A DNA stretch of 64,000 nucleotides from an uncultured Candidatus Saccharibacteria bacterium (GCA_964628585.1 CAZVMH010000005.1:2491-66490), one strand, 5' to 3'. Numbered from the stretch's first letter, positions 1 through 51,452 are shown. The notes: generated by a model from the sequence alone, not told the origin. Numbers and translations: made by a program.

Positions 1-170
1 ATTTAATTTGTGATTGCGAAGTGGCGTTTGCGACAAAATCACTGGGGGCTGCTGGTGCTACGGCATGAGCGACTAATATTTTTGTAAGAATTAACGAAAC
101 AAAAATAACCAAACCAATAATTTTACCAACAAACCAATACTTATTTTTGTATTTAATAAATTTTTTCATT
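1..170 (-). CDS. N-terminal fragment (about 57 aa) of a further paralogous giant surface protein that runs off the window edge. It has a signal anchor (MKKFIKYKNKYWFVGKIIGLVIFVSLIL) followed by APSDFVANATSQSQI, which resembles the first Fn3 repeat of the downstream paralogs.
   Basis: Manual translation of the reverse complement of 1-170. ATG at 168-170. Hydrophobic anchor plus an Fn3-like start similar to paralog C (SAPSGLTATAVSPSQINLTW). Not in the ORF track because it is truncated. Confidence 0.45.
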
Positions 171-227
171 TATATAACTTTTAATTATGTAATTGAACCA
201 CTCTTTTTCTTATTATATCAATAAATA

Positions 228-3032
228 TCAGTCAACCTCAACTTTAAAGGTGACTTCGCGGGTGTCGTTGGGGTTTACCTGGCCGAGGTTCCAGGTGATT
301 TTACCGTTACTGTATTGTCCCTCGCCGGTGGCGGAATTGGTAACATATGTCGTCCCGTCAGGAATTTCATTGGATAAGATATTATTGCTTCCCGTGAAGG
401 TGTAAGGTGTGGGGTTGGTGATCTTTAAAGTATAGGTGATCTCCTGGCCGTGATTGGCGCTTGTACAACCTTCTGTCCCCCCACAACTTGATGTCTGCTC
501 GACTTTTAGATAGTCGTAGTAGAGGTCGGCAACTGCTAATAATGGATCAAGACCCGAAAAGTATATACTATCATCTAAAATGGCAATTCCTTTTTCACTC
601 TGATCTGATGAAGGTAAATAACCAATTTCAGTTGACTGAGAAGGATTGGTGACATCAATAATTTGTATACCGTTATAGTCTGCTGATGAACTAAAATTAT
701 TAACATATGCTTTATTTTGAACAATTGTGATATTTCTGCAAGAGCTAACTTTTGGGACAATAGTTTTAATTAATTGGGGATTGTTAGGCACATTAATATC
801 AACAACAAGTGTACCGTTAGCATCAGCTGTTAAAAAAGCAAATGTACCTTGAATCGCAACATCTCTTATATAATTATTAACACTAGGGGTGATGACATTG
901 GGATATAAATAAGGAGCAGATAGATTAGCAACATTAGCAACTCGCATATTTTCAGTGTTAGCGATATAAGCATAGATACCACTTACAGCTACTGCTGACG
1001 GGCTTCCGTTAGTGTTTAAAGTCGATTTTTTAATTGGATTTTGGGGATTATTTATATCGTAAATTAGTAAACCTTCACTTGTATTAGCGATAAATAATAA
1101 ATTATTTTTTACTGTGACACCACGTGGATAGTGAGAAGCATCTATTGTCGACAACAGAGACGGATTAAGAGGATTTCTAATATCAATTATTTTTATTGAT
1201 GAATAGGTGGAAGAAGATGAAGGTGGTGTATCGGCTAACACAATATAATCATTACCATAAAACGTGGAATCAAGAACCTTATTAGTATTTATTGCACCTA
1301 CTTGATAAGATTGTTTTTGGTTAATTATTTTATAAATATATAATTTTGATTGATAAGCGCTGTAGGTAGCAACATATAAATATTCACCTTTAATATTAAT
1401 TGAGCTAATATAATCTGTACTAGATATAAGAGACGTTACTATTGGGGCAAGTGGATTATTTACATCCGTTAATACTAAACCGCCGTACATTTCAGCAATA
1501 CCGAGAATATTATGGCAACTAATATCGATACTGTTATAATACGTATGACCGTGATGATTCTGAAAATTTTTGTATTTTGGGTAAAAAGGGTCCGATATAT
1601 CGTAAACAGCAAATCCATTATAATCATAACTATAAGCAAAACTGCCAATATATAAATAATTATTTAATATTTTAATACTCATGTTTACTTCACCCTCAGT
1701 TAAGTCATGGGTGTAAAATTTAATATCATCTGGATTATTAATTTCAAATATATACATATTTTCATTAGTTATTACATAAGCATAATTATTTTGGATCGCA
1801 ACATCAATGACAGAACCTTCAGTTTCGATTGTTTTAATAATAATAGGTAATTTTACATCGCTTATATTTAGTAACAAAATCCCAGTTCCGTCTGCGATTA
1901 CTGCTTTACCGTTATTAACTACTATTGACCTAGAAACTCCTGGGGTATCAAATATGCTAATTACTACAGGCATAATAGGATATGTTATATCATAAGTTAT
2001 TAAGCCAGCATCATAGCACGCTATAAATAATTTATTGTCTGATATATATAAACCGTAACTATAATCTGGGGTTTCCATAACCTTTACAATTTCGGGTTTA
2101 AATTTATCTGTGATATTTATTATAGATATATTTTTACCATTGCTAACGTAAACATAATTTTTATCATCCTCGATGATATCATATGCTTTATCTTCAAGCT
2201 TTACAGAACTTATTATGAGTGGATTATTGGGATTATGAACATCAGCAATTTGCATATTTTTATCAGATCCAATGTATAGATAATTACCATCTTTTGAGAA
2301 TTTGGGTACATATACGTTTTCGCCAACCATTGGCAACTCTCTCACTATTTTTGGGTTGACGCCGGTATACTTGTAGGTCGGGGTGGCGGAGGCGGTGTTG
2401 GTGTATTCGGTAAATGTTGTGTCGTTGAGTTTGCCTCTAACCTTGTAGTAGTAGGTGGTGTCGGCGACAAGGTCGGTGGTATCCGTGTAGGTGACGGTGT
2501 TGGCCGGCAGTGTGGCAAGAACGCTGAAGTGTTGGTCGTCGCCCTGGCTTTTCTCAACAATGTAGTTGGTCTCAATACCGGTGTGGTCTTGCCAGGCAAG
2601 ATTGATTTTAAGCGAGTCGGTCGCGGCTGTGGCGGTCAGGTTGGTGGGCGGATTGATGGGGATGGTGGCAGAGACGGTTGGGGTTGGTGGCGAAGGATTA
2701 TACGACGAATCGCGAGCTACGAGGTTAAAGTAGCGAGTATCGCCTTCGGTCAGTGGATTAGGCAAGGTATAGTTTGTCGTATCAGCTGGTCGAGTGGTCA
2801 GGTAATATAAGTTTGCGGCAGTTGTCCCCCATCTTATTTGATAATCTGTCTCACCGGCAACATCATCCCAGGTCAGTTTGATCTTGTTTGTCTCAACGAT
2901 AGTGGCTTTAAAATTTGTTGGTGTTGCCGGAACAGCCAAAACTGGCATTGCTCCCAAACTGAAAGTATACGCCAAAAAGATAATCGTTAAGACAACATTA
3001 GTAATACGTTTTAGTTTTGCATGCTTTAGCAT
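228..3032 (-). CDS. Giant secreted/cell-surface protein, paralog A (934 aa). Domains: signal peptide, Fn3 repeats, LVIVD-like beta-propeller repeats, C-terminal DUF11-like module with a CGGTEGC motif.
   Basis: N-terminal hydrophobic signal (VVLTIIFLAYTFSLGAMPVLA). Fn3-like segments (KIKLTWDDVAGETDYQIRWGTT; LTATAATDSLKINLAWQDHTGIETNYIVEKS). Repeated YAYV/LYIA...GLLIYDI blocks typical of LVIVD propellers. C-terminus ADLYYDYLKVEQTSSCGGTEGCTS...ITYTLKITNPTPYTFTG...KITWNLGQVNPNDTREVTFKVEVD is shared with the next two genes. SD-like AAGGAAAtttATG upstream. Confidence 0.85.
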   Translation of the reverse strand: MLKHAKLKRITNVVLTIIFLAYTFSLGAMPVLAVPATPTNFKATIVETNKIKLTWDDVAGETDYQIRWGTTAANLYYLTTRPADTTNYTLPNPLTEGDTRYFNLVARDSSYNPSPPTPTVSATIPINPPTNLTATAATDSLKINLAWQDHTGIETNYIVEKSQGDDQHFSVLATLPANTVTYTDTTDLVADTTYYYKVRGKLNDTTFTEYTNTASATPTYKYTGVNPKIVRELPMVGENVYVPKFSKDGNYLYIGSDKNMQIADVHNPNNPLIISSVKLEDKAYDIIEDDKNYVYVSNGKNISIINITDKFKPEIVKVMETPDYSYGLYISDNKLFIACYDAGLITYDITYPIMPVVISIFDTPGVSRSIVVNNGKAVIADGTGILLLNISDVKLPIIIKTIETEGSVIDVAIQNNYAYVITNENMYIFEINNPDDIKFYTHDLTEGEVNMSIKILNNYLYIGSFAYSYDYNGFAVYDISDPFYPKYKNFQNHHGHTYYNSIDISCHNILGIAEMYGGLVLTDVNNPLAPIVTSLISSTDYISSINIKGEYLYVATYSAYQSKLYIYKIINQKQSYQVGAINTNKVLDSTFYGNDYIVLADTPPSSSSTYSSIKIIDIRNPLNPSLLSTIDASHYPRGVTVKNNLLFIANTSEGLLIYDINNPQNPIKKSTLNTNGSPSAVAVSGIYAYIANTENMRVANVANLSAPYLYPNVITPSVNNYIRDVAIQGTFAFLTADANGTLVVDINVPNNPQLIKTIVPKVSSCRNITIVQNKAYVNNFSSSADYNGIQIIDVTNPSQSTEIGYLPSSDQSEKGIAILDDSIYFSGLDPLLAVADLYYDYLKVEQTSSCGGTEGCTSANHGQEITYTLKITNPTPYTFTGSNNILSNEIPDGTTYVTNSATGEGQYSNGKITWNLGQVNPNDTREVTFKVEVD

Positions 3033-3052
3033 AAATTTCCTTGTATACTTTT

Positions 3053-6000
3053 TTAATCTACCTTGACCTTGAAAGTGACTTCGCGTGTGTCGTTGGGGTT
3101 TACTTGACCGAGGTTCCAGGTGACTTTGCCATTACCAAATGTTCCCCCACCGGTGGCTGAATTGGCAACATATGTTGTGTTGGCGGGAATGGGGTTAGAT
3201 AAAATATTATTGTTGCCAGTAAATGTATACGGCGTCGGGTTGGTGATCTTTAAGGTATAGGTAATCTCTTGGTTATGCGTAGCGCTTGTGCACCCCTCTG
3301 TCCCCCCACAACTTGATGTCTGCTCGACTTTCATATAGTCGTAGTAGAGGTCGGCAACCATAGTTAATTCTGCGTCATTTGCCAAATAGACGTAACGTCC
3401 GTCAACTGAGAGAGCTTGAGTACGCCTTCCCCCGTCTGATAAAAAAGCCAGATCAGTAAGTATTGACGGCGTCGAAATATCAAAAAACTTAAAACCGTTC
3501 TCAGCGCTTAAGTAGCTAAAGCACGATGCGAACAACTTGTTTCCGGAGACAGTTATAGATGTGGCAGAGCTTGATATAGGTAACGATCCTGTACCGCCTT
3601 TTACGGGGCTCTGCGGTACTGTGACATTGATAATTTGAATAGTATTGACAATGCCGACATAGGCATAGCTATCTTTGGCGTCAACACTCACTAGTGTACC
3701 GGTTAATGTCAGCGTACCAATAAAACTAGCGCTAAGAGGATTGGCAATACTTAAAACCTTAAAAGTATCTTCACCGACAGTATAGGCGTAAGTACCTGAT
3801 ATGGCAATGTCACGAATCAACTTTTGCGAGCCCAATGTTTTTACGACCTTTGCTTGAGTAATATCAATAATAAGTAGGTTATTTATATCGCCGAGAGTGC
3901 GACCACCTATATACGCATAATTGCCGGCTGTCGCAACAGCTTGCAAATATTTATAATCACCAAAGGTCATGGTATTTATTAAATTTGGACTGGCCGGATT
4001 ACGAATGTCAATGATGGCTAATTTGTTGTTTTCGCAAATAACCAAGGCGTGGTGATTATTATCAAGGGCTATTTTTAACGGTTCACTAATATTGAAACTT
4101 TTAACATGAAGTGGCTTTTCGGGAGTTCCGCGCTGTTTAATATCATAGATGTATATTTTGTCCTGGACACCGGACTCGGGTATAACATAGAGATAATTGC
4201 CGTCTGTGACGTTATCTTTTGCTGTCATTGATTGTGGCATGACTGATAATATTGTTGAACTTTCTGGTGTAGCAACATCGACAATTGAAATGCCTCCGTA
4301 CGATTCAGCTAAAATAGCGATATTTTCCTTAACATCAATACCGCCATAATACGGTTGACCAGTAATTTGTACAAATTTTATTTCTTGAGGTACGGGCGAG
4401 GATATGTTAAATATTTGCAAGCCGTTAGACGTACTTAAGCCGGATCTGGTATTAACATAAGCAAAATTATTTTGAATTTTAACACCATTAATAGCACCGT
4501 ATAAAATTGGTCTACCGTTACCTAAGTACTGTGGTTGACTCGGGTCTTGAATATTTAGGGCAACAAGGCCGACATCACTACCAACACACAGATAGGCATT
4601 GCCGTTAGGGGCAATATCGATATCGAGAATCGGATTTCCGGCGTCGTAGATACCAAAAGAAGGTATTTGACCATTTCTGGCTGCTAATTCAAAATTAGCC
4701 GGTGTCGTTGTTAGTACTTGTTTATTTGAGTTGTTTCCTATTAAAACAATATTGTCATTGGCGGCAATAGTAGTAATAGCACCATTAATATTAATAGTAC
4801 CGATAGTTGTAGCAAGATACGGGTTTGTAATATCAACTAGAGCGGCGCCGCTGGTGTAAACGGCAAGATAGACATGATTGTTGTTGATTGCTATATCTTG
4901 TAAATAATTTGGAAAATCGATTGTTTTAATAACACGCGGTTTGAGGGGGTCAAAGACATTAACGATTTTTAAGGAATGATCGTCAATAACATATAAATAA
5001 CCGTTGTTGTCTAATTCTAAATCGGAAGGGCCAGCCATTTCCAAACTAGATAATATCAAAGGTTGATTTGGGACGCTAATATCAACGATACGTAGACTTT
5101 TAATATTACCATCAGTAACATACGCATATTGTTTATCTTGAGATATTATTACTTTGCTAGCATCGCCTATTGTCGGTGTCTTGCCAATCCACCCCGGGTT
5201 AATGCCGGTGTATTTGTAGGTTGGGGTGACAAAGACGGTGTTGGTGTATTCGGTAAATGTTGTATCGTTGAGTTTGCCTCTGACCTTGTAATAGTAGGTG
5301 GTGTCGGCAACAAGGTCGGTGGTATCTTCAAAGATTACGGTGTTGGCCGGCAGTGTGGCAAGAACGGTAAAGTTGCTCTCATCATTAGGGCTTCGTTCTA
5401 AGATGTAGTTGGTCTCAATAGTGGTGTGGTCTTGCCAGGCAAGGTTGATTTTAAGCGAGTCGGTAGCCGGTGTGGCGGTCAGGTTGGTGGGCGGATTGAT
5501 GGGGATGGTGGCAGAGACGGTTTCGGTGGGGGCCGAGCAACCGTAAACGTCGTGGCAGGCCTTTAGAGAAAAGTATCTGGTGTCGCCTTCGTTTAATGTA
5601 TAAGTGTAGATATAGCTGGTGGTGTTGGCGGAAGGATAAAAGAGATAGACAAGATTGTTTGGTGTTGTGCCGTAGTCCAGGCGATATTTGCTTTCACCAG
5701 CCACATCATCCCAGGTCAGTTTAATCTTGTTTGTCTCATAGACGGAGGCCGTAAAGTTGGCAGGCGTTGGCGGTGGCGGCGGGGTAGCCAAAGTTGTTGC
5801 CGTAACTTGTTGGTCGGCGCAGATTTCTTTACCGGCGTAGTAGTTAAAAGCGCATAAACGATAGGTGTAGGTTGTTGAGGGCAATAAGGAGGTATTGTCT
5901 GAATATGACCCTGGCGAGGCATCTGCTGATTGATTGTAGTCGCCGCTGCCACCGGTGCGGTAGAGCTTAATTTGGCTGTAATTGCCGCTATTGGTATTGG

Positions 6001-6481
6001 CCTGATTAGACCAGGTGAGGTTGATTCTGTCATAGGCAACGCCTTGGGCTGACAGGTTGTAGGGCGGGCCGTCTAAAGTGGTGGTAAATGCATAGGACGA
6101 AGAAGTTGACTCACCGTATATATTGTAGGGTAAGACCTTGTAATAGTAGGCGGTATAGCCCTTAAGGCCTGTGTCTTGGTAACTGGTTGCATCAACACCG
6201 GCTTCGCCAACCTGCTCCCAGGGACCGCCGTCCGACAAAGATCGTTTAATGTGGAAGCCCTGTTCGTCGGTAGCAGGACATGTCCACGTAAGATTTATTT
6301 GACTGTATGATATGGCTTTGGCGTTTAGACTGTAAACCTGTGTTGGCACACCGGCTCTGACAATTAAAATACCCAAAAACAAGACCGCCAAAGCCACACC
6401 GACACCGATTAAAACGCCGGTGAGAGTAAATTTACGCTTGGGTTTGGTTGGGGTTTGAGGTGATGATTGTTGCGTGTTCAT
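3053..6481 (-). CDS. Giant cell-surface protein, paralog B (1142 aa). Domains: N-terminal Lys/Pro-rich segment plus TM anchor, multiple Fn3 repeats, LVIVD-like beta-propeller, C-terminal DUF11-like module.
   Basis: N-terminus KPKRKFTLTGVLIGVGVALAVLFLGILIV (signal anchor). Several Fn3 units (INLTWTCPATDEQGFHIKRS; RINLTWSNQANTNSGNYSQIKLYR; KIKLTWDDVAGESKYRLDYGTT). The C-terminal 75 aa is nearly identical to paralogs A and C. RBS cAGGAGGgcaaaATG. Confidence 0.85.
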   Translation of the reverse strand: MNTQQSSPQTPTKPKRKFTLTGVLIGVGVALAVLFLGILIVRAGVPTQVYSLNAKAISYSQINLTWTCPATDEQGFHIKRSLSDGGPWEQVGEAGVDATSYQDTGLKGYTAYYYKVLPYNIYGESTSSSYAFTTTLDGPPYNLSAQGVAYDRINLTWSNQANTNSGNYSQIKLYRTGGSGDYNQSADASPGSYSDNTSLLPSTTYTYRLCAFNYYAGKEICADQQVTATTLATPPPPPTPANFTASVYETNKIKLTWDDVAGESKYRLDYGTTPNNLVYLFYPSANTTSYIYTYTLNEGDTRYFSLKACHDVYGCSAPTETVSATIPINPPTNLTATPATDSLKINLAWQDHTTIETNYILERSPNDESNFTVLATLPANTVIFEDTTDLVADTTYYYKVRGKLNDTTFTEYTNTVFVTPTYKYTGINPGWIGKTPTIGDASKVIISQDKQYAYVTDGNIKSLRIVDISVPNQPLILSSLEMAGPSDLELDNNGYLYVIDDHSLKIVNVFDPLKPRVIKTIDFPNYLQDIAINNNHVYLAVYTSGAALVDITNPYLATTIGTININGAITTIAANDNIVLIGNNSNKQVLTTTPANFELAARNGQIPSFGIYDAGNPILDIDIAPNGNAYLCVGSDVGLVALNIQDPSQPQYLGNGRPILYGAINGVKIQNNFAYVNTRSGLSTSNGLQIFNISSPVPQEIKFVQITGQPYYGGIDVKENIAILAESYGGISIVDVATPESSTILSVMPQSMTAKDNVTDGNYLYVIPESGVQDKIYIYDIKQRGTPEKPLHVKSFNISEPLKIALDNNHHALVICENNKLAIIDIRNPASPNLINTMTFGDYKYLQAVATAGNYAYIGGRTLGDINNLLIIDITQAKVVKTLGSQKLIRDIAISGTYAYTVGEDTFKVLSIANPLSASFIGTLTLTGTLVSVDAKDSYAYVGIVNTIQIINVTVPQSPVKGGTGSLPISSSATSITVSGNKLFASCFSYLSAENGFKFFDISTPSILTDLAFLSDGGRRTQALSVDGRYVYLANDAELTMVADLYYDYMKVEQTSSCGGTEGCTSATHNQEITYTLKITNPTPYTFTGNNNILSNPIPANTTYVANSATGGGTFGNGKVTWNLGQVNPNDTREVTFKVKVD

Positions 6482-6515
6482 TTTGCCCTCCTGATATTAC
6501 CCAACTACCACCTCC

Positions 6516-6532
6516 GGGGTGGAAGTTTGTCG
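6516..6532 (-). other. Short GC hairpin (CCACC-TCCGG-GGTGG) in the 61-bp spacer between paralog C stop and paralog B RBS. Possible attenuator or RNA-processing site within a polycistronic surface-protein transcript.
   Basis: Inverted repeat ccacctccggggtgg read directly. No T-run follows on the minus strand, so it is not a classic terminator. Confidence 0.3.
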
Positions 6533-6542
6533 GTTAAATTAG

Positions 6543-9500
6543 TTAATTGACCGTTACCTTAAAGCTCACTTCCCTTTCCTCGTTGGGGTTTACTTGACCG
6601 AGGTTCCAGGTGATTTTACCGCTACCGTATTGTCCCCCGCCGGTGACAGAACCCTGAACATATGTTGTTCCGTCAGGAATTTCATTGCTTAAAATATTAT
6701 TGTTGCCAGTAAATGTATACGGTGTGGGGTTGGTAATCTTTAAAGTATAGGTAATCTCTTGGCCGTGATTGGCGCTTGTGCACCCCTCTGTCCCCCCACA
6801 ACTTGATGTCTGCTCGACTTTTAAATAGTCGTAGTAGAGGTCGGCAACCTCGACAAGGTACTTTTCGTCTGTGATATATGCATAACGTCCGTTGGCGGTT
6901 GCTGCCATGGCATGGAAAGATGATTGTAAAAAAGCTTTTTCAGTAGCCATCGTTGGATTAGAAATATCGATTATTTGTAAACCATTATTGAAAAAATTCC
7001 AACTATAGTTGGCAATATAAACTAAGTTATTTTGTAAAAATACACTATAAGCCATATCGCGTGGTATGACTTCTCTAACAATAGAGGCATTAAATGGGTT
7101 GGTAGTTAAATTAACAATAAGCGTGCCTTGATTGAAAGCGGCAACATAGGCATAATTATTTGCCCCTACAGCAACATCGTGTGTTGTCTGTGTTGTCGCG
7201 ATGGTTTTAATCCACGTTAACGCATTAGCGTTGCTAACATTTAAGAGAGTTATACCAGCCGTGCCATCGGCGATAACGGCCGTTGTGCCGTTTAAAGCTA
7301 CGCCAAATACTTGTCCTGGCGTGTTGTATGACCCCAGTTTTTTAAGTGATAAAACATTATTCATATCAACAATGACTAATCCCGCTTCATAACAGGCGGC
7401 ATATATTTTATTGTCTTTAATAGAAACATCAAGTACATAATCGGGCATCTCGATACCGGAAATAATTGTCGGTATTCGTGGGTTACTGACGTCAACGAGA
7501 CGAATATATTTATCGTCGCTAACTACAACATAATTGCCGGTTATTTCTAACGCAATTGGTGAAGTAAGTTTTAATGCTCCCACCTGTTCCGGATATTTTG
7601 GGTCGCTAATATCGTAAATGTATAAATAATCTTGTATGCCAGAGTTGCTAAAAGTGTATAAATGATTACCACTAGTGACAATTTTTCCTGATGGTATATT
7701 AATCGTTGGTATATAAGCAATGGCCCAAGTATTTGTAAGATCGTTAGTGTCAAATATCGCCAAGCCATATAAATTGCCACTGGCGACGCTGACAATACCA
7801 CCAAAACTAGACACACCGCCATAATTATTACCAGCGTTAAGCATAAAAGCGATTTCTTTTAAGCTATTGTCAGGGTTGCGCTGGGTAACATCAAATATCT
7901 GAAGACCGTTATGGGTGTTAGCACGACTCAAATTAGCCACGTATATACGGTTACCGGAAGTAGAAACCCCGATTGCATAATCTCTTTGTAAAGAGGTCGA
8001 AATAAGGATGGGAATAGATGGCGTTGAAAAGTCAATTTCCAATAAACCAGCATATCCGGCGGGAATATAAGCACGACCGTTTTCGGCAATTGTCACATTT
8101 CTCACAATAGAAGCTGTATCTGTAATCGGTATTGATGATAAGTGTTGCGCAGATTTTAGATCAATAATTGCCACACCCTCTGTGCCATCGGCGACAACGG
8201 CCGTATCACCTAATACGGCCACCGATGATGCCTGACCCGGGGTGTCAATAGTTGTATCGAGCAAACGGGGTATAGACCGATTACTGACATCAACAATTCT
8301 AAGACCGACAGAATAGTTAGCAATGTATATTTTCTCGTCAAGATAGAACAATCCATTAACATAGTCCGTCAGCTCAAGCTCTGAAACAGCAATCGGTCGT
8401 TTTGGGTCATTAATGTTGGCAATTTTTAATTTTTTATTTTCACCATAATAAATGTAGCCCTTTTCATCAACTTTAATATCAAAAATTTCTTTACCTGTAT
8501 CGACATTTATTCTGCTCGTCAACAACGGATTCGTTGGATCAGAAATATCAACAATTTGAAGACCAGTAGACGATCCAACATATGTGTAATGACCGTCATT
8601 AGACATAGCTGTATATTTGGTGCTTCCCATTGACGGAGTTTTACCGATCCATCCCGGGTTGACGCCTGTGTATTTGTAGGTTGGGGTGGCAAAGACGGTG
8701 TTGGTGTAATCGGTGAAGGTGGTGTCGTTGAGTTTGCCTCTGACCTTGTAGTAGTAGGTGGTGTCGGCAACAAGGTCGGTGGTATCCGTGTAGGTTACAG
8801 TGTTAGCGGGCAGTGTGGCAAGAATGGTGAAGTGTTGGTCGTCGCCCGGGCTTTTCTCAACAATGTAGTTGGTTTCAATAGTGGTGTGGTCTTGCCAGGC
8901 AAGATTGATTTTAAGCGAGTCGGTCGCGGCTGTGGCGGTCAGGTTGGTGGGCGGAAAGGTATTTGTTGTTGCTTGGGCAATTGTTGGCGAATCGGAACAA
9001 CCATCAGCATTACAGGCCTTGATGTTAAAGTAGTAGGTCTTGTTTTCTGTAAGATTATTTGTTGTATAGGTGGTAGCATTAGCCGGTAGAGCCGGTAGTA
9101 AGTTTAGAGTGTTGGGGTCTTCGCCTTGACGCAGTTCAAAGCGGGTTTCGTTGTCGGAATTGTCTTGCCAGGTTAGTTTGATCTTTGTTACTTCTTGTAT
9201 ATTAGCTTCAAGGTTGGTGGGCATAGCCGGTGGTGGATCTGGTGGTGGCGGAGAAAAAGTTGTTGCCGAGGCCGTCTCGGTTGAGCAGGTCTCGCCGTAC
9301 GAGTTTGTGGCGCAAATGCTAAAAGTATAAGTAGTATTGGGCAAAAGATTCGTTTCAGTATATGACGTTCTCGGAGAAGGTATCCATGTTTTAATATCCG
9401 AATAAGGGCCACCGCTTCTGTTAATAATGAACCAGTCCACAACAGGGGCATTGTTAGTCCAAGAAACATTAATCTCGGTCTGGGAAACAGCTGTGGCTGT

Positions 9501-9950
9501 AAGATTACTGGGGGCAGCAGGAGGGCCACTAAGAGTTGTGGCGTAAGCCAGATTAGAATAGAAGGAATAGACCATATCAGCATTGAAAGCTCTGACACGA
9601 TAGAAATACCTAGTGTAATTTGCTAAGCCAGTGTCTTGAAAAGCTGTTGTATTAGCGGGTTGGGTAAATGTTGTCCAGGGGCCGTAGCTAGATGTTCCCC
9701 TTGCAACCTCAAAACCGGCTTCATCATTAGCATTATCAGTCCAAGTGAGATTAATTTGGCTGGGAGAAACGGCTGTAGCCGTCAGACCAGATGGAGCAGA
9801 GGGCGCTTGGGCCCTGACAATTAAGATACCAATAAACAAGACCGCCAAAGCCACACCGACACCGATTAAAACGCCGGTGAGAGTAAACCTGCGTTTGGGT
9901 TTAGGCGGGGTTTGGGGTTTGCTGGCAGTATTATTTAGAGCACTAGCCAC
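6543..9950 (-). CDS. Giant cell-surface protein, paralog C (1135 aa). Domains: TM signal anchor, four or more Fn3 repeats, LVIVD-like beta-propeller, C-terminal DUF11-like module.
   Basis: N-terminus KPKRRFTLTGVLIGVGVALAVLFIGILIV is almost identical to paralog B. Fn3 motifs (QINLTWTDNANDEAGFEVARG; EINVSWTNNAPVVDWFIINRSGG; KIKLTWQDNSDNETRFELRQG). Shared conserved C-terminus. Confidence 0.85.
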   Translation of the reverse strand: MASALNNTASKPQTPPKPKRRFTLTGVLIGVGVALAVLFIGILIVRAQAPSAPSGLTATAVSPSQINLTWTDNANDEAGFEVARGTSSYGPWTTFTQPANTTAFQDTGLANYTRYFYRVRAFNADMVYSFYSNLAYATTLSGPPAAPSNLTATAVSQTEINVSWTNNAPVVDWFIINRSGGPYSDIKTWIPSPRTSYTETNLLPNTTYTFSICATNSYGETCSTETASATTFSPPPPDPPPAMPTNLEANIQEVTKIKLTWQDNSDNETRFELRQGEDPNTLNLLPALPANATTYTTNNLTENKTYYFNIKACNADGCSDSPTIAQATTNTFPPTNLTATAATDSLKINLAWQDHTTIETNYIVEKSPGDDQHFTILATLPANTVTYTDTTDLVADTTYYYKVRGKLNDTTFTDYTNTVFATPTYKYTGVNPGWIGKTPSMGSTKYTAMSNDGHYTYVGSSTGLQIVDISDPTNPLLTSRINVDTGKEIFDIKVDEKGYIYYGENKKLKIANINDPKRPIAVSELELTDYVNGLFYLDEKIYIANYSVGLRIVDVSNRSIPRLLDTTIDTPGQASSVAVLGDTAVVADGTEGVAIIDLKSAQHLSSIPITDTASIVRNVTIAENGRAYIPAGYAGLLEIDFSTPSIPILISTSLQRDYAIGVSTSGNRIYVANLSRANTHNGLQIFDVTQRNPDNSLKEIAFMLNAGNNYGGVSSFGGIVSVASGNLYGLAIFDTNDLTNTWAIAYIPTINIPSGKIVTSGNHLYTFSNSGIQDYLYIYDISDPKYPEQVGALKLTSPIALEITGNYVVVSDDKYIRLVDVSNPRIPTIISGIEMPDYVLDVSIKDNKIYAACYEAGLVIVDMNNVLSLKKLGSYNTPGQVFGVALNGTTAVIADGTAGITLLNVSNANALTWIKTIATTQTTHDVAVGANNYAYVAAFNQGTLIVNLTTNPFNASIVREVIPRDMAYSVFLQNNLVYIANYSWNFFNNGLQIIDISNPTMATEKAFLQSSFHAMAATANGRYAYITDEKYLVEVADLYYDYLKVEQTSSCGGTEGCTSANHGQEITYTLKITNPTPYTFTGNNNILSNEIPDGTTYVQGSVTGGGQYGSGKITWNLGQVNPNEEREVSFKVTVN

Positions 9951-10260
9951 ATATCCTCCTTATTTATATAATAAGCCAATAAATATTAATAAATATGTTA
10001 ATATTTTCCTTAATTTAATTATAAACTAAATTCAATTTTATTAAAAATATAAATTTTTTAATCTAACCATGATTTATTAAAAAATAAAATCACACAATAG
10101 ATGCCGATAAACAAAAAAGTTTTAGGATGACCCATTAATAAAATCATTCACTTTATAAATGTCTTTTTTGTATAATGGTGATATAATAGTACAAATGAAG
10201 GTAGTATGAGCGAAAAATTATTGTTAATAGTCTTAATTTGTAAATTATTAAGGAGATTAA

Positions 10261-10479
10261 ATGTTCCCAAAAAATCCAAAGGAGGTCTCTTTTTATGGCG
10301 TAGGCGTTGTTATTATTTTGATCGGAGCTGTAATTTTTGCTTATGGAGGAGTAACTTGGCTTTTTAACGTCTTCCGAGATACCAACTTCTCTATGCCATC
10401 TGGAAAAATAATTGGTGGTTTGGTTGTAATAGCTCTTGGCTATATTCAGATCGAGCTAGAACTAATGCGACGAGGATAA
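10261..10479 (+). CDS. Small membrane protein (72 aa, two predicted TM helices).
   Basis: Strong SD (ttAAGGAGAttaaATG) 8 nt upstream. Hydrophobic segments VGVVIILIGAVIFAYGG and IIGGLVVIALGYI. Extended -10 (TGtATAAT) at about 10160-10168. Confidence 0.5.
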   Translation: MFPKNPKEVSFYGVGVVIILIGAVIFAYGGVTWLFNVFRDTNFSMPSGKIIGGLVVIALGYIQIELELMRRG

Positions 10480-10507
10480 TATCTTAAATCAGTCTCGATA
10501 AAAAAAT

Positions 10508-10530
10508 CGTCGCCCCCTAGTGGGGCGACG
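10508..10530 (-). terminator. Rho-independent terminator for the minus-strand gene 10555-11052. It has a 9-bp GC stem (cgtcgcccc/ggggcgacg) and a 5-nt loop, followed by a T7 run on the minus strand. On the plus strand it is a hairpin without a T-run.
   Basis: Sequence aaaaaaaTCGTCGCCCCctagtGGGGCGACGgcg read directly. The A7 on the plus strand equals a T7 immediately 3' of the stem on the minus strand. Confidence 0.7.
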
Positions 10531-10554
10531 GCGATTGTCGAGTTGGGCCAACGA

Positions 10555-11052
10555 CTATGATGATAATGCAGTAAGCGCCGGTTTGTTGGAGAGCGAACAA
10601 ACCGCTTCAGAGAGAAGCCCTCCGCAATTGCTTCTCTCTAGATAAATCTCGAACAGTACTTTGTCGAAGCTACCATAACGACGCATCAATGTCTCAATCT
10701 GAGCCATCAACATGCTCAGCTCTTCAAGCCCGACATAGTCTGTAGATATCACGCCGTCACAGTCTAGGCCAGACCCACATGCTGCAAACGTTATGACCTT
10801 GGTGAAACGTTTGCAAAACTCGACTGACCATCTCTCCCCCCCTGAAGAAAGGAGTATGATCCATGGCCTGTGCATCTTGAGAGCCCTTTGTGTCTCAAAT
10901 TCGTTATCGCAGATTACAACCTTGAAGAGTGGGGCGTTTAGACTTTCTTCTGCCCAACCAAGCTGGTGTAGCCAATTGATATTCTCCCCCACAATCAACA
11001 GTGAGGGTCGAATAGTTCGACTAGCCAACATTCCCTTCATCCAATCGCTCAT
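10555..11052 (-). CDS. Hypothetical protein (165 aa) with compositionally atypical, higher-GC coding DNA. No confident family assignment; possibly a receiver-like or Rossmann-like fold.
   Basis: ORF is bounded by two strong intrinsic terminators. GC is about 45-47% versus about 33% in the surroundings. Motifs LLIVGENINW and PWIILLSSGGERW are only weakly reminiscent of CheY-like folds. Confidence 0.45.
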   Translation of the reverse strand: MSDWMKGMLASRTIRPSLLIVGENINWLHQLGWAEESLNAPLFKVVICDNEFETQRALKMHRPWIILLSSGGERWSVEFCKRFTKVITFAACGSGLDCDGVISTDYVGLEELSMLMAQIETLMRRYGSFDKVLFEIYLERSNCGGLLSEAVCSLSNKPALTALSS

Positions 11053-11152
11053 TCCTAACCTCCCACGAAGTATGACTTAGTCATAAGATACCACTTTTAT
11101 ACACTTATGTCTAATGTAAAATTTCTGTTTGTTGACAAAATTAAAAATAAAA

Positions 11153-11176
11153 CAGCCCGCGAGTCGGGACTGTTTT
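11153..11176 (-). terminator. Rho-independent terminator (stem acag-cccg/cggg-a-ctgt with a 1-nt bulge, loop cgagt) flanked by A-runs and T-runs on both strands. It serves the minus-strand gene 11192-11683.
   Basis: aaaataaaACAGCCCGcgagtCGGGACTGTtttattttt read directly. Symmetric A/T flanks. Confidence 0.65.
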
Positions 11177-11191
11177 ATTTTTAATTAATAT

Positions 11192-11683
11192 TTAGTTATC
11201 GCAACAATCGCCCGGACCAGGCCCACGGCCTCTTGCTTCACCTTTTCCGCCAAAACCCACTCCTCCCACTCCATAACTTTTCAATTTTGAAAAATCTATT
11301 CCACTTTCATCCTGCCATTTTTGATCCGCAGTGCGCTCTTCTTGCTCCCGTTTTTGAATTTCCTCTCTTTTTTGAACTAAGGTTTGTTTTTGTTCGGCAG
11401 TTATTGCTCCTTCACTGACTGCTTTATCTAAATTTGCATTAACTTGTTCTTGAGCTTGTGTTCGCTTCTCTTCACGGACTTGATTCATGGCTGTTGTTAT
11501 CTGCTCCTCTGAAACATTTAACTTTTTGGCCAAGTTCTGTGCCATCTCACCCTTACCATTTTCATACCCTGCCTTTACAATTCTGCTATTCCATAAAACT
11601 GCTCCACCAGCCATCAATCCTAAAACAATTAATGGGTATATTAAAAATTTAATTTTTTTATTCATTTCCTCACCTCCTTTCAA
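11192..11683 (-). CDS. Secreted or membrane-anchored coiled-coil protein (163 aa) with a Gln/Glu/Lys-rich helical region and a Gly-rich C-terminus ending GPGPGDCCDN.
   Basis: N-terminal signal/TM (KIKFLIYPLIVLGLMAGGAVLW). Long charged helical segment (EEQITTAMNQVREEKRTQAQEQVNANLDKA...). Gly-rich tail GVGGVGFGGKGEARGRGPGPGDCC. SD GGAGGtgaggaaATGa. Located immediately downstream of the two-component system. Confidence 0.55.
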   Translation of the reverse strand: MKGGEEMNKKIKFLIYPLIVLGLMAGGAVLWNSRIVKAGYENGKGEMAQNLAKKLNVSEEQITTAMNQVREEKRTQAQEQVNANLDKAVSEGAITAEQKQTLVQKREEIQKREQEERTADQKWQDESGIDFSKLKSYGVGGVGFGGKGEARGRGPGPGDCCDN

Positions 11684-11750: not shown

Positions 11751-12761
11751 TTAATTCATGGGAAAATGAATTATAAATTCGCTTCCTTTTCCCGGTTTTG
11801 AGTCAACTGATATTTGACCCCTATGAAGTTCAACAATACTTTTAGCAATTGAGAGTCCCAAACCGTAACCATCAATTTTCTCCTTAGAACGAGAAGTATC
11901 TGCTCTGTAGAAACGATTAAAAACGAAAGGAAGATCAGAGGATTTTATGCCGAGACCATTATCTTTAATTTTTACAATTATATCTTTCTTTTCTTCTGAC
12001 ATATTTATCCATATTCTTGAATTACTCGGACTATATTTAATAGCATTATCCAAAAGTATCACGAATAGTTCAACTAGACTCTGATAATCTCCTTTGATTG
12101 AGATGTTTTTAAATTCATTTTTAAATTCAATTGATTTTTTTTCTGCCAGACATGCAACTTTTTCATAGGAGTCAATAATAATGTCTTCCAAAGCGACCGT
12201 CTTGAAAATAACAGTTTTGTCATCATCGAATTTAGCTAATTTAAGAAGAGCGCTGGCAAGTGATTCCAATTTTGAAACCTCCTCTAGGTTACTATTTAGA
12301 AGTTTTTTAGCTTCACTCAAATTTAAATTTTTATCCTTTAAATTAACTTCTATTTCAGTACGAAGCGCGGTAAGGGGAGTACGAAGTTCATGCGAAGCGT
12401 CTGCTGTAAATCTGTTTTGAGCGTCCATTGTTTCCTCAATCGGTTTAAGAGTTTTTCGGGCCAAAAAATATCCCGCTACAGATGAAAGAATTAATATCAG
12501 TAAATTATAATAGATCAAATTGTTACGAAGGTTGTTGTTACTCTCATTAATTTGGTCTGTTCTTAACTGTTCCAAAATAGACGCCCTATCGGAAAAGCCC
12601 TGAATATTAATATCACGTAATGCACCAGCCTGTCTTCCCAAACCTCTTCCAAGCTCATTAGATGAAATCTGAAAAATTGCAATACTAAAAATTATACTAA
12701 TCGACATCGCAATCAGAACATAGAATAACGTCAATTTTAGGTGAGCAGTTTTAAAATGCAT
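11751..12761 (-). CDS. Sensor histidine kinase (HisKA plus HATPase_c) with an N-terminal two-TM sensor region.
   Basis: H-box ADASHELRTPLTALRTEIEV. N/G boxes ILLDNAIKYS, KDNGLGIKSSDLPFVFNRFYRAD, GYGLGLSIAKSIVELHRGQISV. Two N-terminal hydrophobic helices. Confidence 0.9.
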   Translation of the reverse strand: MHFKTAHLKLTLFYVLIAMSISIIFSIAIFQISSNELGRGLGRQAGALRDINIQGFSDRASILEQLRTDQINESNNNLRNNLIYYNLLILILSSVAGYFLARKTLKPIEETMDAQNRFTADASHELRTPLTALRTEIEVNLKDKNLNLSEAKKLLNSNLEEVSKLESLASALLKLAKFDDDKTVIFKTVALEDIIIDSYEKVACLAEKKSIEFKNEFKNISIKGDYQSLVELFVILLDNAIKYSPSNSRIWINMSEEKKDIIVKIKDNGLGIKSSDLPFVFNRFYRADTSRSKEKIDGYGLGLSIAKSIVELHRGQISVDSKPGKGSEFIIHFPMN

Positions 12762-12833
12762 TGTTTGATTGAAATTAAGAAATATAAATTATGGACTATA
12801 CAATACTTCTGTGATTCTTATATTATTTATGAT

Positions 12834-13526
12834 TCATTCGGATATTTTGTACCCGAAACCTCTTATTGTCTTGATTATCTCTGGTTTCCCTTTAAACCTA
12901 TCGATTTTTTTGCGCAGATAACCGATATAAACCTCGACTGTGTTAGGAAGAATATCTGCATCGTAATCCCAAACATGAGAAATAATGTTATCTTTGGTCA
13001 GTATACGGCGGGGATTGCGCATTAAATATTCTAACAACGAAAACTCTTTATTTGAAAGTAGAATTTTCTTATTACCCCTGTAGACTTCAAATGTTAAGCT
13101 ATTTAGACTTAAATCTCCATATTTCAAAATATTGTCCATTGCTTTAGATGGCCTTCGCAGAAGAGCTCTTATCCGAGCCAAGAGCTCCTCAAAAGCAAAT
13201 GGCTTAACTAAGTAATCATCGGCTCCTGCATTTAAGCCCTCAACTCGATCCCTAATTTTATCTTTTGCAGTTAAAATTATAACCGGAATATTTATCTTTT
13301 TATTTCTTAAGACACCGCATATTTTAATACCATCAATCCCAGGCAACATTCTATCAAGTATGATAAGATCATACTCACAGGTCAGGGCAAACCCTATTCC
13401 GTCTTGACCGTCATATGACACATCAACAGCAAAAGATTCCTGTTCTAAGCCCTTTTTGATTGCATTTGCAATCTTGTGATCGTCTTCTACTATAAGGATT
13501 CTCATGGCATTCACCCTTATTAACAA
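12834..13526 (-). CDS. OmpR/PhoB-family response regulator (receiver plus winged-helix DNA-binding domain).
   Basis: MRILIVEDDHKIANAIKKGL...LILDRMLPGIDGIKIC (receiver, Asp pocket). C-terminal LTFEVYRGNKKILLSNKEFSLLEYLMRNPRRILTKDNIISHVWDYD...TVEVYIGYLRKKI (trans_reg_C). Confidence 0.92.
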   Translation of the reverse strand: MLIRVNAMRILIVEDDHKIANAIKKGLEQESFAVDVSYDGQDGIGFALTCEYDLIILDRMLPGIDGIKICGVLRNKKINIPVIILTAKDKIRDRVEGLNAGADDYLVKPFAFEELLARIRALLRRPSKAMDNILKYGDLSLNSLTFEVYRGNKKILLSNKEFSLLEYLMRNPRRILTKDNIISHVWDYDADILPNTVEVYIGYLRKKIDRFKGKPEIIKTIRGFGYKISE

Positions 13527-16526: not shown

Positions 16527-17885
16527 TTATTCGATACCCTTATAATCATCGCCCACAATGATCTTTATTTGTGCAGTCTGATTTTCAGACGGTTTTTTAC
16601 TCACAACTAAACAATTAAGCTTTAATTTTAATTCATCGACTAAGTCATTCTCACTTGTTTCAAGATAACTGTAAAGAATGGTTTGTTTATATTTTTCGGT
16701 ACTTGTGGTAACACTGACCACGTTATAACCTAATTTTTTGAGCGAAACAGACAATTTCTCACCTAAACCGGCTGTTTTAGAACCATTCTCTATTGCGATT
16801 TTGATATCAACTGTATTTGCTGTGCTAAAAATATTTTTGGCGATCTGACGTAATACCGAAAAATTGCTAACTTTCGCCATTAAATAAAAAGTCCCGGAAG
16901 ACGAATCGGAGTATAGATGTCCGTCAGGACCGTTGTCTAGCACTTTGTTAATAATATTTGCAGAATCAACTTCTTTTACAGTATCGGCCAAGCTTTTAAT
17001 ATCGGATGCACTCATATCGGTACGAACATGATTCCCCACAATAGCTACAATATCTAATATCTTTTTTGGATTTGCAAAAACCCCTGCTTTCATCGCTTTT
17101 TCTTTTGTCGCCCTAAGAATCAGTTGTTGCCTTCTAGCTCTATCAAAATCAGAAGTAGATTCTCTGGAACGAGCATATTTTAGGGCCGTTTTCCCGTCTA
17201 AGTGTTGTTGCCCTGCCTTTATAGAGAAAGTTGAATAACCCACCATTCTTTCATCGGGATAAGATGGATCATAAATTGCTTTTTCGACATAGACATCCAC
17301 TCCGCCCAATTCATCAATTAGTTTTTGAAAACCAACAAAGTCTACTGAAACATAGAAATGAATTGGTATTTCAAAAACATTTGAGACTGTTTGACGTGTT
17401 AAATTAGCACCAGCCGCCATTGCACTGTCTAGACATTGTGATTGGACCTTTTTCTTGCAATCTTTCTGTAAATAATCGTTATAACCATCTGCAAAAGCAG
17501 AATTAATTTTCCCAGATCCATGATTATTGATTGGCACATATAAATCCCGAGGGATAGAGATCATCGCCATTTTCTTTTCTTTTGGTTTTATCGAAAAAAT
17601 CATTAGTGAATCTGTTAAAAGTCCGCCAGGATGATTTTCGCCGCCTCTACCCATAACCAATATATTGACTCTATCCTGTTTAAAAATATCGCTCTGTTCG
17701 CCTTTAATAATACTAAAAAGACCAGAATCACCGCTCAAACCTTTATCAAAGACTCTTGATCCCGTGGCATAAAGATACGAAACATAAGACAAAATTATAA
17801 CAAGAATGGAGCCAAAAACTACTAGCCCAATTTTTCTTTTTTTCTTTTTTGGTTTATCTTTGTTTGTAGCGCTAAAAAACTTCAT
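16527..17885 (-). CDS. LCP (LytR-CpsA-Psr) family cell-wall glycopolymer transferase with a C-terminal LytR_C-like domain.
   Basis: N-terminal TM, then VNILVMGRGGENHPGGLLTDSLMIFSIKPKEKKMAMISIPRDLYVPI (LCP core), and ...ARSRESTSDFDRARRQQ (conserved Arg-rich region). Confidence 0.85.
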   Translation of the reverse strand: MKFFSATNKDKPKKKKRKIGLVVFGSILVIILSYVSYLYATGSRVFDKGLSGDSGLFSIIKGEQSDIFKQDRVNILVMGRGGENHPGGLLTDSLMIFSIKPKEKKMAMISIPRDLYVPINNHGSGKINSAFADGYNDYLQKDCKKKVQSQCLDSAMAAGANLTRQTVSNVFEIPIHFYVSVDFVGFQKLIDELGGVDVYVEKAIYDPSYPDERMVGYSTFSIKAGQQHLDGKTALKYARSRESTSDFDRARRQQLILRATKEKAMKAGVFANPKKILDIVAIVGNHVRTDMSASDIKSLADTVKEVDSANIINKVLDNGPDGHLYSDSSSGTFYLMAKVSNFSVLRQIAKNIFSTANTVDIKIAIENGSKTAGLGEKLSVSLKKLGYNVVSVTTSTEKYKQTILYSYLETSENDLVDELKLKLNCLVVSKKPSENQTAQIKIIVGDDYKGIE

Positions 17886-18346: not shown

Positions 18347-18743
18347 TAATATATGAGAATTTTATCTTTTTGATCTGTTTTGTAAAAAGTGACTCAATTT
18401 TTTTTGGCCATTCAATTATCAAAACTGTGTCTTCTTTGCCAATAAGTTCCAATAAACCAATTGCCTCTGCATCAGCTGTATTATTAAGGCGATAACAATC
18501 CAAATGTGCAATGTTTTTTATATTATTGATTGATTCTGGCAACTGGTATTGCTTCATTATGACGAATGTTGGACTATTAATGATTCGCTCTACACCCAAT
18601 GCTTTAGCGAAATAGCGAGCAAAGGTCGTTTTACCACTTCCCAAGTCTCCGTACAGAGCAAAAACGTCACCGCCTTTTGCATTTTTTGCAATTTTTTGGG
18701 CAATTTCTAAAGTTTCTTTTTCAGAATGAGAGATATATTCCAT
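18312..18743 (-). CDS. tsaE: tRNA t6A ATPase TsaE/YjeE.
   Basis: Walker A LYGDLGSGKTTFARYFAKALGV. Conserved INSPTFVIMKQY motif. Confidence 0.85.
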   Translation of the reverse strand: MEYISHSEKETLEIAQKIAKNAKGGDVFALYGDLGSGKTTFARYFAKALGVERIINSPTFVIMKQYQLPESINNIKNIAHLDCYRLNNTADAEAIGLLELIGKEDTVLIIEWPKKIESLFTKQIKKIKFSYINENSRKIEHEK

Positions 18744-25706: not shown

Positions 25707-26666
25707 TCAGACCTCATTAATATTAAGAATATCATCTACTGATTTTGAGGCAGCCATTAAATATTTTACAAATATATGATTTTTCAGGTCTTCAATTCTT
25801 TTTTCTTTATGTTTGGTATGCTCAAGCACAAAATCAAATGAATGTATTGTCAGCCTGATAATGCTACATCTAAAAAATTCTTTTTCTTCCTTTGTTTTTA
25901 GAAATACATTCAATTTTTCTTGCCAATTTGGGTTTTTCCATAAGTATAACCAAAGAAAAGTAAAATCGACCATATAATTATCGGCACAAAACCACTCCAA
26001 ATCAGAAAAACTTATTTGATCATCTGGAGTGACAATAATATTTGAAGGAGTAAGATCTCCGTCACAGCTACTTCGGAAGGAACTTTTAAAATAATTATTT
26101 GCTTTTGATTTATAATAATTTACAGGTGTTGAAAGAGAAATACCGAGATCATTTTCAATAGCTTTTAGATCATATTCTTCGATTTGCTCGTAAAATCTTT
26201 TTGGGATTGAATACAACCTGGCATCTTTAATTTGTCGTAATATTTTTAAATTGCTCACTATCCCGTCGATTATTTTTTTACTCTTAGGCAAAAGTTCCTG
26301 CTTGATAGGATTGTTATATAAGGGATCGTCCGGTTGGGTTTCTCCTCCTAGGGGTGTTCCTGAAATGTAATCCTTTAACATCCAAAAATATTGCCCTATT
26401 TCTCCACTTTTTACTACCCTTGCCATCGCAGTTTTCTTGTTGAATTTGCTTTCAAAATCCTGCGTTATTTTATCAATGAGAATTTCTTTTAGTAACCTGT
26501 CGACTCTCGCCTGATTTTTTTTAGTAGAAATTTTCAATATTGCTTTTTTATTAAGAAACTTTCCCTTGCTCACAATATAATTTTCAGTCTCACTGAATTT
26601 TAATACTTGATCTTCTTGGAAACCTATTTCTTCTATTATTCTTATGAGGTCTTCTTTAAAACTCAT
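25707..26666 (-). CDS. Aminoglycoside-phosphotransferase-fold (APH/choline-kinase-like) putative sugar kinase.
   Basis: Brenner-like catalytic motif CDGDLTPSNIIV (cf. HGDLHPGNIL) and downstream ISFSDLEW..ADNYMVD (DxD-like). No other family signal. Confidence 0.45.
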   Translation of the reverse strand: MSFKEDLIRIIEEIGFQEDQVLKFSETENYIVSKGKFLNKKAILKISTKKNQARVDRLLKEILIDKITQDFESKFNKKTAMARVVKSGEIGQYFWMLKDYISGTPLGGETQPDDPLYNNPIKQELLPKSKKIIDGIVSNLKILRQIKDARLYSIPKRFYEQIEEYDLKAIENDLGISLSTPVNYYKSKANNYFKSSFRSSCDGDLTPSNIIVTPDDQISFSDLEWFCADNYMVDFTFLWLYLWKNPNWQEKLNVFLKTKEEKEFFRCSIIRLTIHSFDFVLEHTKHKEKRIEDLKNHIFVKYLMAASKSVDDILNINEV

Positions 26667-51375: not shown

Positions 51376-51452
51376 TGGTAGCGGCGGGAGGACTTGAACC
51401 TCCGACCTCGGGCTTATGAGTCCCACGCTCTAACCAGCTGAGCTACGCCGCC
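51376..51452 (-). tRNA. tRNA-Met (CAU), elongator type, CCA encoded.
   Basis: Reverse complement GGCGGCGTAGCTCAGCTGGTTAGAGCGTGGGACTCATAAGCCCGAGGTCGGAGGTTCAAGTCCTCCCGCCGCTACCA. Paired 1:72 (G-C). D-arm and T-arm are canonical. Anticodon loop CTCATAA. Resembles bacterial elongator tRNA-Met. Confidence 0.82.

Follow-up and report, generated by a model that had tools for sequence, protein, structure and literature searches.

The 64,000-nucleotide stretch of DNA considered here (the window; GCA_964628585.1, CAZVMH010000005.1:2491-66490) carries, at positions 1-9950, a tandem array of genes for large proteins that combine fibronectin type III (Fn3) domains, LVIVD-type beta-propellers and a DUF11-type C-terminal module. 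The array is best explained, at a probability of about 0.6, as a family of Sec-exported cell-envelope proteins in which a variable binding head made of two propellers is displayed on an Fn3 stalk, with the last Fn3 domain and the C-terminal tail as the common part. At the DNA level the genes are mosaics. We read the pattern as short-tract gene conversion that homogenises two modules bracketing anciently diverged, partly horizontally exchanged heads. This mosaicism, which was missed in an earlier note made from the sequence alone, is the main addition to that first description.

Organization and domain architecture

Three intact open reading frames (ORFs) lie head-to-tail on the minus strand and are designated gene A (228-3032; 934 aa), gene B (3053-6481; 1142 aa) and gene C (6543-9950; 1135 aa). 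A fourth ORF, gene D, is incomplete at the window start. Its 5′ end (1-169, same strand) begins at position 169 and comprises 56 codons for a signal/anchor segment and the start of an Fn3 domain; the visible translation is MKKFIKYKNKYWFVGKIIGLVIFVSLILTKILVAHAVAPAAPSDF..., with the Fn3-start region quoted as PAAPSDFVANATSQSQIK. The array consists of at least three, and probably four, genes. Gaps of 61, 20 and 58 bp separate them; these spacers are unique sequence, and A, B and C are each intact with a full architecture. Gene C has a GTG start codon with an AGGAGG site 4 nt before it. The ORF calls agree with the earlier note, which had described three complete genes and the 5′ fragment of a fourth in tandem on one strand, and its estimate that they fill some 15% of the window is close to the measured 15.5%. 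Its term “giant” is an overstatement for proteins that, at 934-1142 aa, are merely large.

The domain families named in that note were recovered in hidden Markov model searches of proteins A-C, with scores above every gathering cut-off. LVIVD (PF08309) scored 62.9, 69.3 and 113.4 bits (C = 113) against a cut-off of 20.2, fn3 (PF00041) 37.4, 48 and 108.5 bits (C = 108) against 25, and DUF11 (PF01345) 30.7-37.4 bits (C = 33) against 24.6. The related model TIGR01451 was matched at 27-32.4 bits, exceeding its cut-off of 24. Protein A has two Fn3 domains; Pfam scores four fn3 stretches in C and two in B, where alignment of the paralogues suggests four. Protein C is arranged as an N-terminal hydrophobic segment, four Fn3 domains, a double LVIVD propeller and a truncated tail of the DUF11 family, which has recently been renamed CLIPPER (PMC12617251). 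Protein B has the same architecture as C, and protein A has a signal segment, two Fn3 domains, a 14-blade (2 × 7) propeller and the truncated CLIPPER tail.

AlphaFold2 was run on gene A only, with an alignment of 14 sequences, and returned a model with a mean per-residue confidence (pLDDT) of 84.5, rising to ~90 over the Fn3 domains and the 14 blades. Two domains with the Fn3-type strand pattern occupy approximately aa 40-123 and 128-217, and ~56 strands, corresponding to 14 blades, span aa 228-836. The LVIVD repeats of gene A would accordingly be expected to fold as a beta-propeller, in a predicted rather than a solved structure, and the model agrees with the Fn3 and propeller assignments of the earlier note. 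In Foldseek searches of the PDB, the model resembled tandem seven-bladed propellers (Utp21, 4nsx; TMt 0.70) and the Fn3-plus-propeller ectodomains of the receptors ROS1 and Sevenless. These resemblances are generic and carry no functional information.

Export of the proteins is plausible because all four N-termini (A-D) carry a basic stretch, a 17-24-residue hydrophobic segment and a V/A-x-A-type site. The candidate signal-peptidase I sites are VLA↓V, VRA↓G, VRA↓Q and AHA↓V, the last belonging to D. An “N-terminal signal anchor” had been proposed; the export-type N-termini bear out the first half of that term, while uncleaved anchor and cleaved peptide are both compatible with them. The proteins had also been called rich in N-x-S/T sequons. 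Their sequon density does exceed that of the window's other proteins 2- to 3-fold, but this follows from their richness in Asn, Ser and Thr: 14, 18 and 23 sequons were observed against 14.6, 15.8 and 18.0 ± 3.6 in composition-preserving shuffles, and enrichment for N-glycosylation was rejected, the counts being those expected from composition.

The array genes are probably co-transcribed, judging from the signals around them. A strong intrinsic terminator (10508-10530, minus strand) closes the upstream ORF 10555-11052 and parts it from the array, and is followed by an AT-rich spacer of ~560 nt upstream of gene C. The best sigma-70-like match, from a consensus scan only, is a putative array promoter at 10217-10244 (minus strand; TTTACA, 16 nt spacer, AATAAT). 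No terminator-like site was found in the C/B/A/D gaps (20-61 bp). The combination of uninterrupted gaps, a promoter-like site and an AT-rich spacer points to transcription from upstream of C.

Mosaic structure and probable gene conversion

In blastn comparisons, DNA-level similarity among A-C is confined to the last Fn3 domain, the tail and the B/C N-terminus. The last Fn3 domain (~300 bp, 85-92% DNA identity) is found at 2353-2652 in A, 5166-5495 in B and 8656-8955 in C, all on the minus strand. The copy in C is 92% identical to that of A and 85% to that of B, and a 73-nt exact run is common to A and C (2580-2652 = 8883-8955). Genes A and B additionally have the preceding Fn3 domain in common (76% overall). 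The tail (~300 bp, 81-86% DNA identity) lies on the same strand at 231-539 in A, 3056-3364 in B and 6546-6854 in C, where it encodes 103 aa; the copy in B has 81-83% DNA identity to the others. The similarity at the B/C N-terminus covers 109 bp at 89% identity. Between copies, the last Fn3 and tail modules are 84-93% identical.

The heads enclosed by these modules are of a different kind. Head A (534-2351; ~606 aa), head B (3359-5194; ~612 aa) and head C (6849-8654; ~602 aa), likewise on the minus strand, are mutually 25-29% identical, with head C at 28.6% and 28.8% to heads A and B, and head B has no DNA-level similarity to the other heads. Relatives with Fn3 domains and a double LVIVD propeller are found in Armatimonadota-like metagenome-assembled genomes (MAGs), namely P0004 (same cluster as MBP6964486.1), P0008 and P0053, all uncharacterised. 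Head C is 45.9% identical to the Armatimonadota MAG protein P0004 (~600 aa) and 33-42% identical to other homologues from outside the candidate phyla radiation (CPR). By these identities, the heads appear as close to the proteins of another phylum as to one another.

Synonymous divergence and base composition follow the same division. Synonymous divergence (dS) in the shared modules is 0.08-0.7 in most 40-codon windows, reaching 2.0 in part of the A-B tail, whereas in the propeller heads it is mostly saturated, which makes dN/dS unusable there. GC content at third codon positions (GC3) is 0.58-0.69 in the shared modules versus 0.30 ± 0.055 in the 37 other genes of the window, none of which contains a 100-codon stretch with GC3 >0.55. 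For the last Fn3 domain, the copy in C has a GC3 of 0.59 and dS values of 0.08-0.6, and in A, where the domain forms a GC-rich tract inside an AT-rich gene, GC3 is 0.69. The change is abrupt within gene A, where GC3 leaps from ~0.19 in the propeller (534-2351; range 0.18-0.21) to 0.66-0.69 in the two modules (2353-2652 and 231-539).

The pattern of variable sites within the modules provides further evidence. Sites that group A with B, A with C or B with C are clustered in blocks, a form of phylogenetic incompatibility. In a runs test, somewhat inflated by multi-nucleotide codon changes, 20 runs were counted against 32.5 expected and 26 against 46.8, and none of 10,000 shuffles gave values as low. 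The block-wise incompatible sites, the low dS of the modules, the saturated dS of the heads and the contrast in GC3 together argue for recurrent short-tract gene conversion. For the high GC3 itself, GC-biased conversion and recent import from a GC-rich donor are both possible.

Composition is also atypical just upstream. An orphan ORF (10555-11052, minus strand; 165 aa) with no family hit has a GC3 of 0.52 versus the genome value of 0.30 ± 0.055, and it may belong to the same compositionally atypical, possibly imported block.

Two known diversification mechanisms were considered and rejected. A target of a diversity-generating retroelement would lie near a reverse transcriptase, form part of a TR/VR pair and vary at its C-terminus, and in the array proteins the C-terminus is the most conserved part, with mainly synonymous differences. 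No reverse-transcriptase family was recognised among the window ORFs of at least 300 aa, two of which (25707-26666 and 39716-41872) lack any family hit. Phase-variable genes or an invertible promoter were likewise rejected, since no inverted repeats flank the promoter and no simple-sequence tracts occur in 1-11200.

The C-terminal module

CLIPPER domains are CnaA-like, carry an intramolecular Lys-Asp-Asn isopeptide bond and are typical of the stalks of fibrillar adhesins; in the solved structure 9IFR, the triad is K715/D748/N806, and certain members of the family are without the bond (PMC12617251). The array tail belongs, by sequence and predicted fold, to this family, yet it is truncated and isopeptide-incompetent. 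The conserved block is ~101 aa long and runs from VADLYYDY... to the end, with copies 84-86% identical to that of A. The near-invariant DUF11-like module of the earlier note is thus confirmed as conserved, although not at the ~75 aa given there.

The model of the tail has a CnaA-like beta-sandwich fold. The Pfam DUF11 match spans only profile positions 11-84 of 114, short of a complete domain. When aligned to complete repeats, all three tails stop after ...FKVxV[DN], ~35-40 residues short of the full domain, and the strands bearing the isopeptide Asn (“xNxAxV”) are absent from each. The position of the catalytic Asp is taken by an invariant Asn (LSN[EP]IP) in all three. The Lys position is ambiguous: the aligned column holds Gln, and an invariant Lys precedes it by 3 residues (7 columns of the alignment). 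Because the Asn strand is missing and Asn stands in place of the catalytic Asp, the tail would be unable to form the Lys-Asn bond.

An exhaustive profile search of 1.84 billion representative proteins with the tail gave 3192 matches, the best being giant proteins in which the repeat occurs in as many as 41 tandem copies. Since such tandem-repeat proteins lead the matches, the tail is most simply an ordinary DUF11-type stalk repeat. Among the top 150 matches, only the three window proteins have it once and in terminal position. The 103-aa tail had no hits in a word-based homology search, the query probably being too short, and no significant match among the sequences of the PDB. There is nothing special or new about the module, a single copy, truncated and isopeptide-incompetent, of a stalk domain that is very common.

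Proposed function and alternative explanations

On the preferred explanation, the N-terminal signal/anchor segment would direct Sec export, and a stalk of 2-4 Fn3 domains would carry a head of two tandem seven-bladed LVIVD propellers, followed by a single Ig-like beta-sandwich, the degenerate, truncated CLIPPER domain. The propeller heads would be the variable, ligand-binding part, their likeliest ligands being polymers or structures on the surface of a host or partner cell, while the last Fn3 domain and the tail would serve as a structural or docking part common to all copies. These two modules would bracket each head and be kept alike by repeated short-tract conversion, the heads having diverged anciently and the nearest known relative of at least head C lying in another phylum. 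The whole array would be transcribed together from the promoter upstream of C. Adhesion to a host or partner is suggested by the architecture, by the usual role of CLIPPER and Fn3 stalks and by proposals for other CPR bacteria; for instance, it has been suggested that another CPR bacterium attaches to its host by means of large surface proteins containing DUF11 and fibronectin domains (bioRxiv 10.1101/2020.11.10.374967).

Several observations weigh against this explanation. Pfam/NCBIfam scans of A-C found no recognised retention signal (LPXTG, SLH, CWB2, LysM or the type IX secretion system, T9SS), and the proteins could simply be released if their signal peptides are cleaved. To our knowledge, no LVIVD propeller has a demonstrated ligand, and the word “adhesin” is applied on the strength of architecture. 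No close relative was found in the genome or Joint Genome Institute (JGI) metagenome collections: in a scan of genome contigs the matches were confined to distant proteins of the Fn3/propeller type (Cloacimonadota and others, 25-36% identity), and in two scans of JGI metagenomes the tail had no match, while the whole protein picked up nothing closer than distant Fn3 matches. As regards conversion, there is the inflation of the runs test, and recent import is another possible source of the modules' high GC3.

The absence of a known anchoring motif, in a genome that has LPXTG on another protein, is one point in favour of the reading of A-C as soluble extracellular proteins that are released on signal-peptide cleavage and act in polymer binding or scavenging, or as enzymes. 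Plausible signal-peptidase I sites in four of four N-termini are consistent with it, as is the weak similarity of the tail model to CBM2/CBM3 carbohydrate-binding modules and to the accessory beta-sandwich domains of chitinases. However, the hydrophobic segments are long (~17-24 residues) and more anchor-like, the combination of Fn3 stalk and CLIPPER is typical of cell-attached fibrillar adhesins (PMC12617251), and no catalytic family scored above cut-off in A-C in the Pfam/NCBIfam scans; release is an unlikely, if credible, alternative. Two specific routes of attachment were rejected. The proteins end in ...FKVEVD, ...FKVKVD and ...FKVTVN, with no LPXTG motif, hydrophobic stretch and basic tail, so they are not sortase substrates, and these C-terminal sequences together with the Pfam/NCBIfam scans rule out T9SS membership. 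The S-layer-like system suggested in the earlier note would fit exported proteins that are large, rich in beta structure and present as several paralogues, and archaeal surface-layer proteins can hold beta-propeller and PKD domains, to judge from the title of Jing et al. 2002. Against this, neither S-layer features nor lattice evidence was found, SLH and other anchoring domains are missing from the Pfam/NCBIfam results, heads at 25-29% identity would not co-assemble in one lattice, and the closest homologues appear to be single-copy genes in 5-Mb genomes. An S-layer or other lattice-forming role is improbable.

Even less can be said for tip adhesins associated with a type IV pilus, similar to PilY1 or the Saccharibacteria adhesin PilX2, a very improbable reading. 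A precedent in Patescibacteria does exist in PilX2, a pilus adhesin with a non-canonical signal peptide and a seven-bladed propeller proposed for host recognition (PMC12206443), and proteins B and C start ...KRRFTLTGVLIGVGVALAVLF, which is loosely pilin-like. The B/C sequence RR↓FTLTG nonetheless lacks both Gly at −1 and Glu5 of the prepilin motif (G −1, F/M +1, E +5), no N_methyl/pilin Pfam hit was obtained, the N-termini of A and D are ordinary and signal-like, and no pilus genes adjoin the array; the pilin-like reading of B and C was judged unlikely. It is also highly improbable that the array, its gene order or its composition is a chimera that arose when reads, perhaps derived from two or more populations, were joined across the shared modules. 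The modules do contain exact repeats of 52-73 nt, within which a template switch is possible, composition is heterogeneous along the array, and a single NCBI contig is the only recorded source of proteins A-C, exact look-ups in other assemblies having given nothing. A 54-nt exact repeat (9834-9887, minus strand) in the N-terminal hydrophobic segment of C, with a second copy in B (6377-6430), is the first repeat met by an independent Logan contig (SRR29243451), which covers window positions 22761-9861 at 99.95% identity and ends at 9861 inside it. Such a stop is expected of a short-k assembler if both copies are in the sample, and the contig reproduces, at 99.95% identity and from an independent run, the flank upstream of gene C together with the gene's first 90 nt. 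Moreover, A-C are intact with complete architectures and unique spacers, the heads are too divergent for collapse, and a switch inside a module would still yield a gene of the same family.

A more elaborate proposal, which we consider unlikely and put forward tentatively, is that the GC-rich modules act as recombination “handles” for a swappable head cassette (in gene C, the last Fn3 domain as the 5′ handle and the tail as the 3′ handle) and that the strand-deficient tail, invariant from copy to copy, is completed in trans by a common envelope partner to which every variant would dock. If true, the handles would let a reduced-genome episymbiont exchange, import (even across phyla) and reshuffle its host-recognition heads, and the array would be a cassette-based surface-variation and docking system, undescribed in Patescibacteria.

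Host and genomic surroundings

To judge from LepA, the host is a Patescibacteria/Berkelbacteria-like bacterium: among named sequences, those nearest to its LepA (60-79% identity) come from “Patescibacteria group bacterium” and “Candidatus Berkelbacteria”. This placement of the contig, in Patescibacteria near Berkelbacteria, bears out the reduced-genome context assumed in the earlier note. The window is ordinary bacterial chromosome, with genes for DnaK, DnaJ, LepA, FtsH, MurJ, TilS, RuvAB, QueA/QueH, ComEC and a Clp ATPase and with four tRNAs; an Rfam scan of the window returned only tRNAs. Three tRNA-Met (CAT) genes lie within 4 kb (51376-51452 and 51877-51953, minus strand; 55397-55472, plus strand), with TilS (50269-51246) adjacent, and presumably include initiator, elongator and tRNA-Ile2-type species.

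Envelope genes in the window include an LCP ligase (16527-17885), MurJ, an L,D-transpeptidase-like protein and an LPKTG protein. The array had been placed next to cell-wall and glycosylation loci; such loci are indeed in the window, but the LCP ligase is 6.6 kb from the array and the GT4 glycosyltransferase cluster ~17 kb away, so the wording was loose. The immediate upstream neighbours are instead two orphan ORFs and a histidine kinase/response regulator pair. This histidine kinase and OmpR-type response regulator (11751-13526, minus strand) lie 1.8 kb upstream of the array and could regulate it.

Other surface proteins are also encoded. The 416-aa product of 18707-19957 (minus strand) combines a Lamin Tail Domain with an OB-fold and bears a classical sortase signal at its C-terminus (LPKTG, then a hydrophobic stretch, then KKK), which suggests that this CPR bacterium uses sortase anchoring, unlike the array proteins. 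Together with the LCP ligase and MurJ, it is consistent with a walled, Gram-positive-like envelope. The 617-aa product of 52483-54336 (minus strand) is likely another surface protein, having a signal segment, a Lamin Tail-like domain that scores under the Pfam cut-off, an Fn3-like region and, at the C-terminus, a transmembrane anchor followed by a basic tail. The ORF at 39716-41872 (plus strand) encodes 718 aa with an N-terminal transmembrane segment and no Pfam/NCBIfam match. Finally, a 470-aa protein (55565-56977, plus strand) has the terminal ...HGCVRL... motif typical of L,D-transpeptidases (YkuD) and is adjoined by a CAP/SCP-domain protein (54671-55225).

Significance and relationship to known systems

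Every cultivated member of the Patescibacteria lives attached to other microbes (PMC12206443). Host recognition in this group is poorly understood, and the array offers a concrete set of candidate host- or substrate-binding proteins. The converted and non-converted segments, with GC3 rising from 0.2 to 0.7 in one gene, would also make a small natural test case for gene conversion, possibly GC-biased, in an AT-rich reduced genome.

The propellers belong to the same repeat family as the LVIVD-repeat surface proteins (PF08309; Adindla et al. 2004, PMC2447325). Similarity to the Choice-of-anchor B family (TIGR04312) is weak, the propeller regions scoring 53 and 46.4 bits where the cut-off is 100, and the array proteins were not accepted as members. 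Nearest in design are P0004, P0008 and P0053, which share with the array an N-terminal signal, an Fn3 stalk and two seven-bladed propellers. The phrase “undescribed system” in the earlier note was therefore too strong, as proteins with Fn3 domains and a double LVIVD propeller exist in other phyla. The MAG proteins end right after the propeller, whereas those of the array carry a CLIPPER tail. At the two homologue loci seen, where the DNA is 60-64% GC, there is no neighbouring copy of the family, in contrast to the tandem copies here. In the P0053 genome (5.4 Mb), a 1753-aa CLIPPER/DUF11 protein (L027, 16831-22092) is encoded at a distance of 2.6 kb from the Fn3-LVIVD gene, on the opposite strand; domain types that lie side by side at that locus are fused in the CPR genes.

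The CLIPPER domains of fibrillar adhesins (9IFR) occur as tandem copies inside a stalk and form the Lys-Asn bond, whereas each array protein has one copy at the extreme C-terminus, strand-deficient and with Asp replaced by Asn, in which the bond would be impossible. PilX2 differs in being a minor pilin with RCC1 repeats encoded within a type IV pilus locus, whereas the repeats of the array proteins are of the LVIVD type, and neither a pilin motif nor neighbouring pilus genes are present.

Gram-positive bacteria have paralogous surface families, such as the Cwp/CWB2 cluster of Clostridioides difficile and the SLH proteins, that are clustered and join a shared wall-binding module to variable functional domains. 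The array resembles these in outline, with clustered paralogues, one common conserved module and a variable exposed part. It is unrelated to them by homology, lacks CWB2, SLH and LysM domains, and differs in that two conserved modules bracket the variable part. As clusters of paralogous surface proteins with conserved modules are a familiar pattern, the array looks like a genuine but rather ordinary adhesin-type family; alone it would reveal no new kind of system, and it may be regarded as a reasonable candidate for host recognition in CPR bacteria. Its unusual details are the terminal, strand-deficient CLIPPER domain without an isopeptide bond and the GC-rich, apparently converted modules around the heads.

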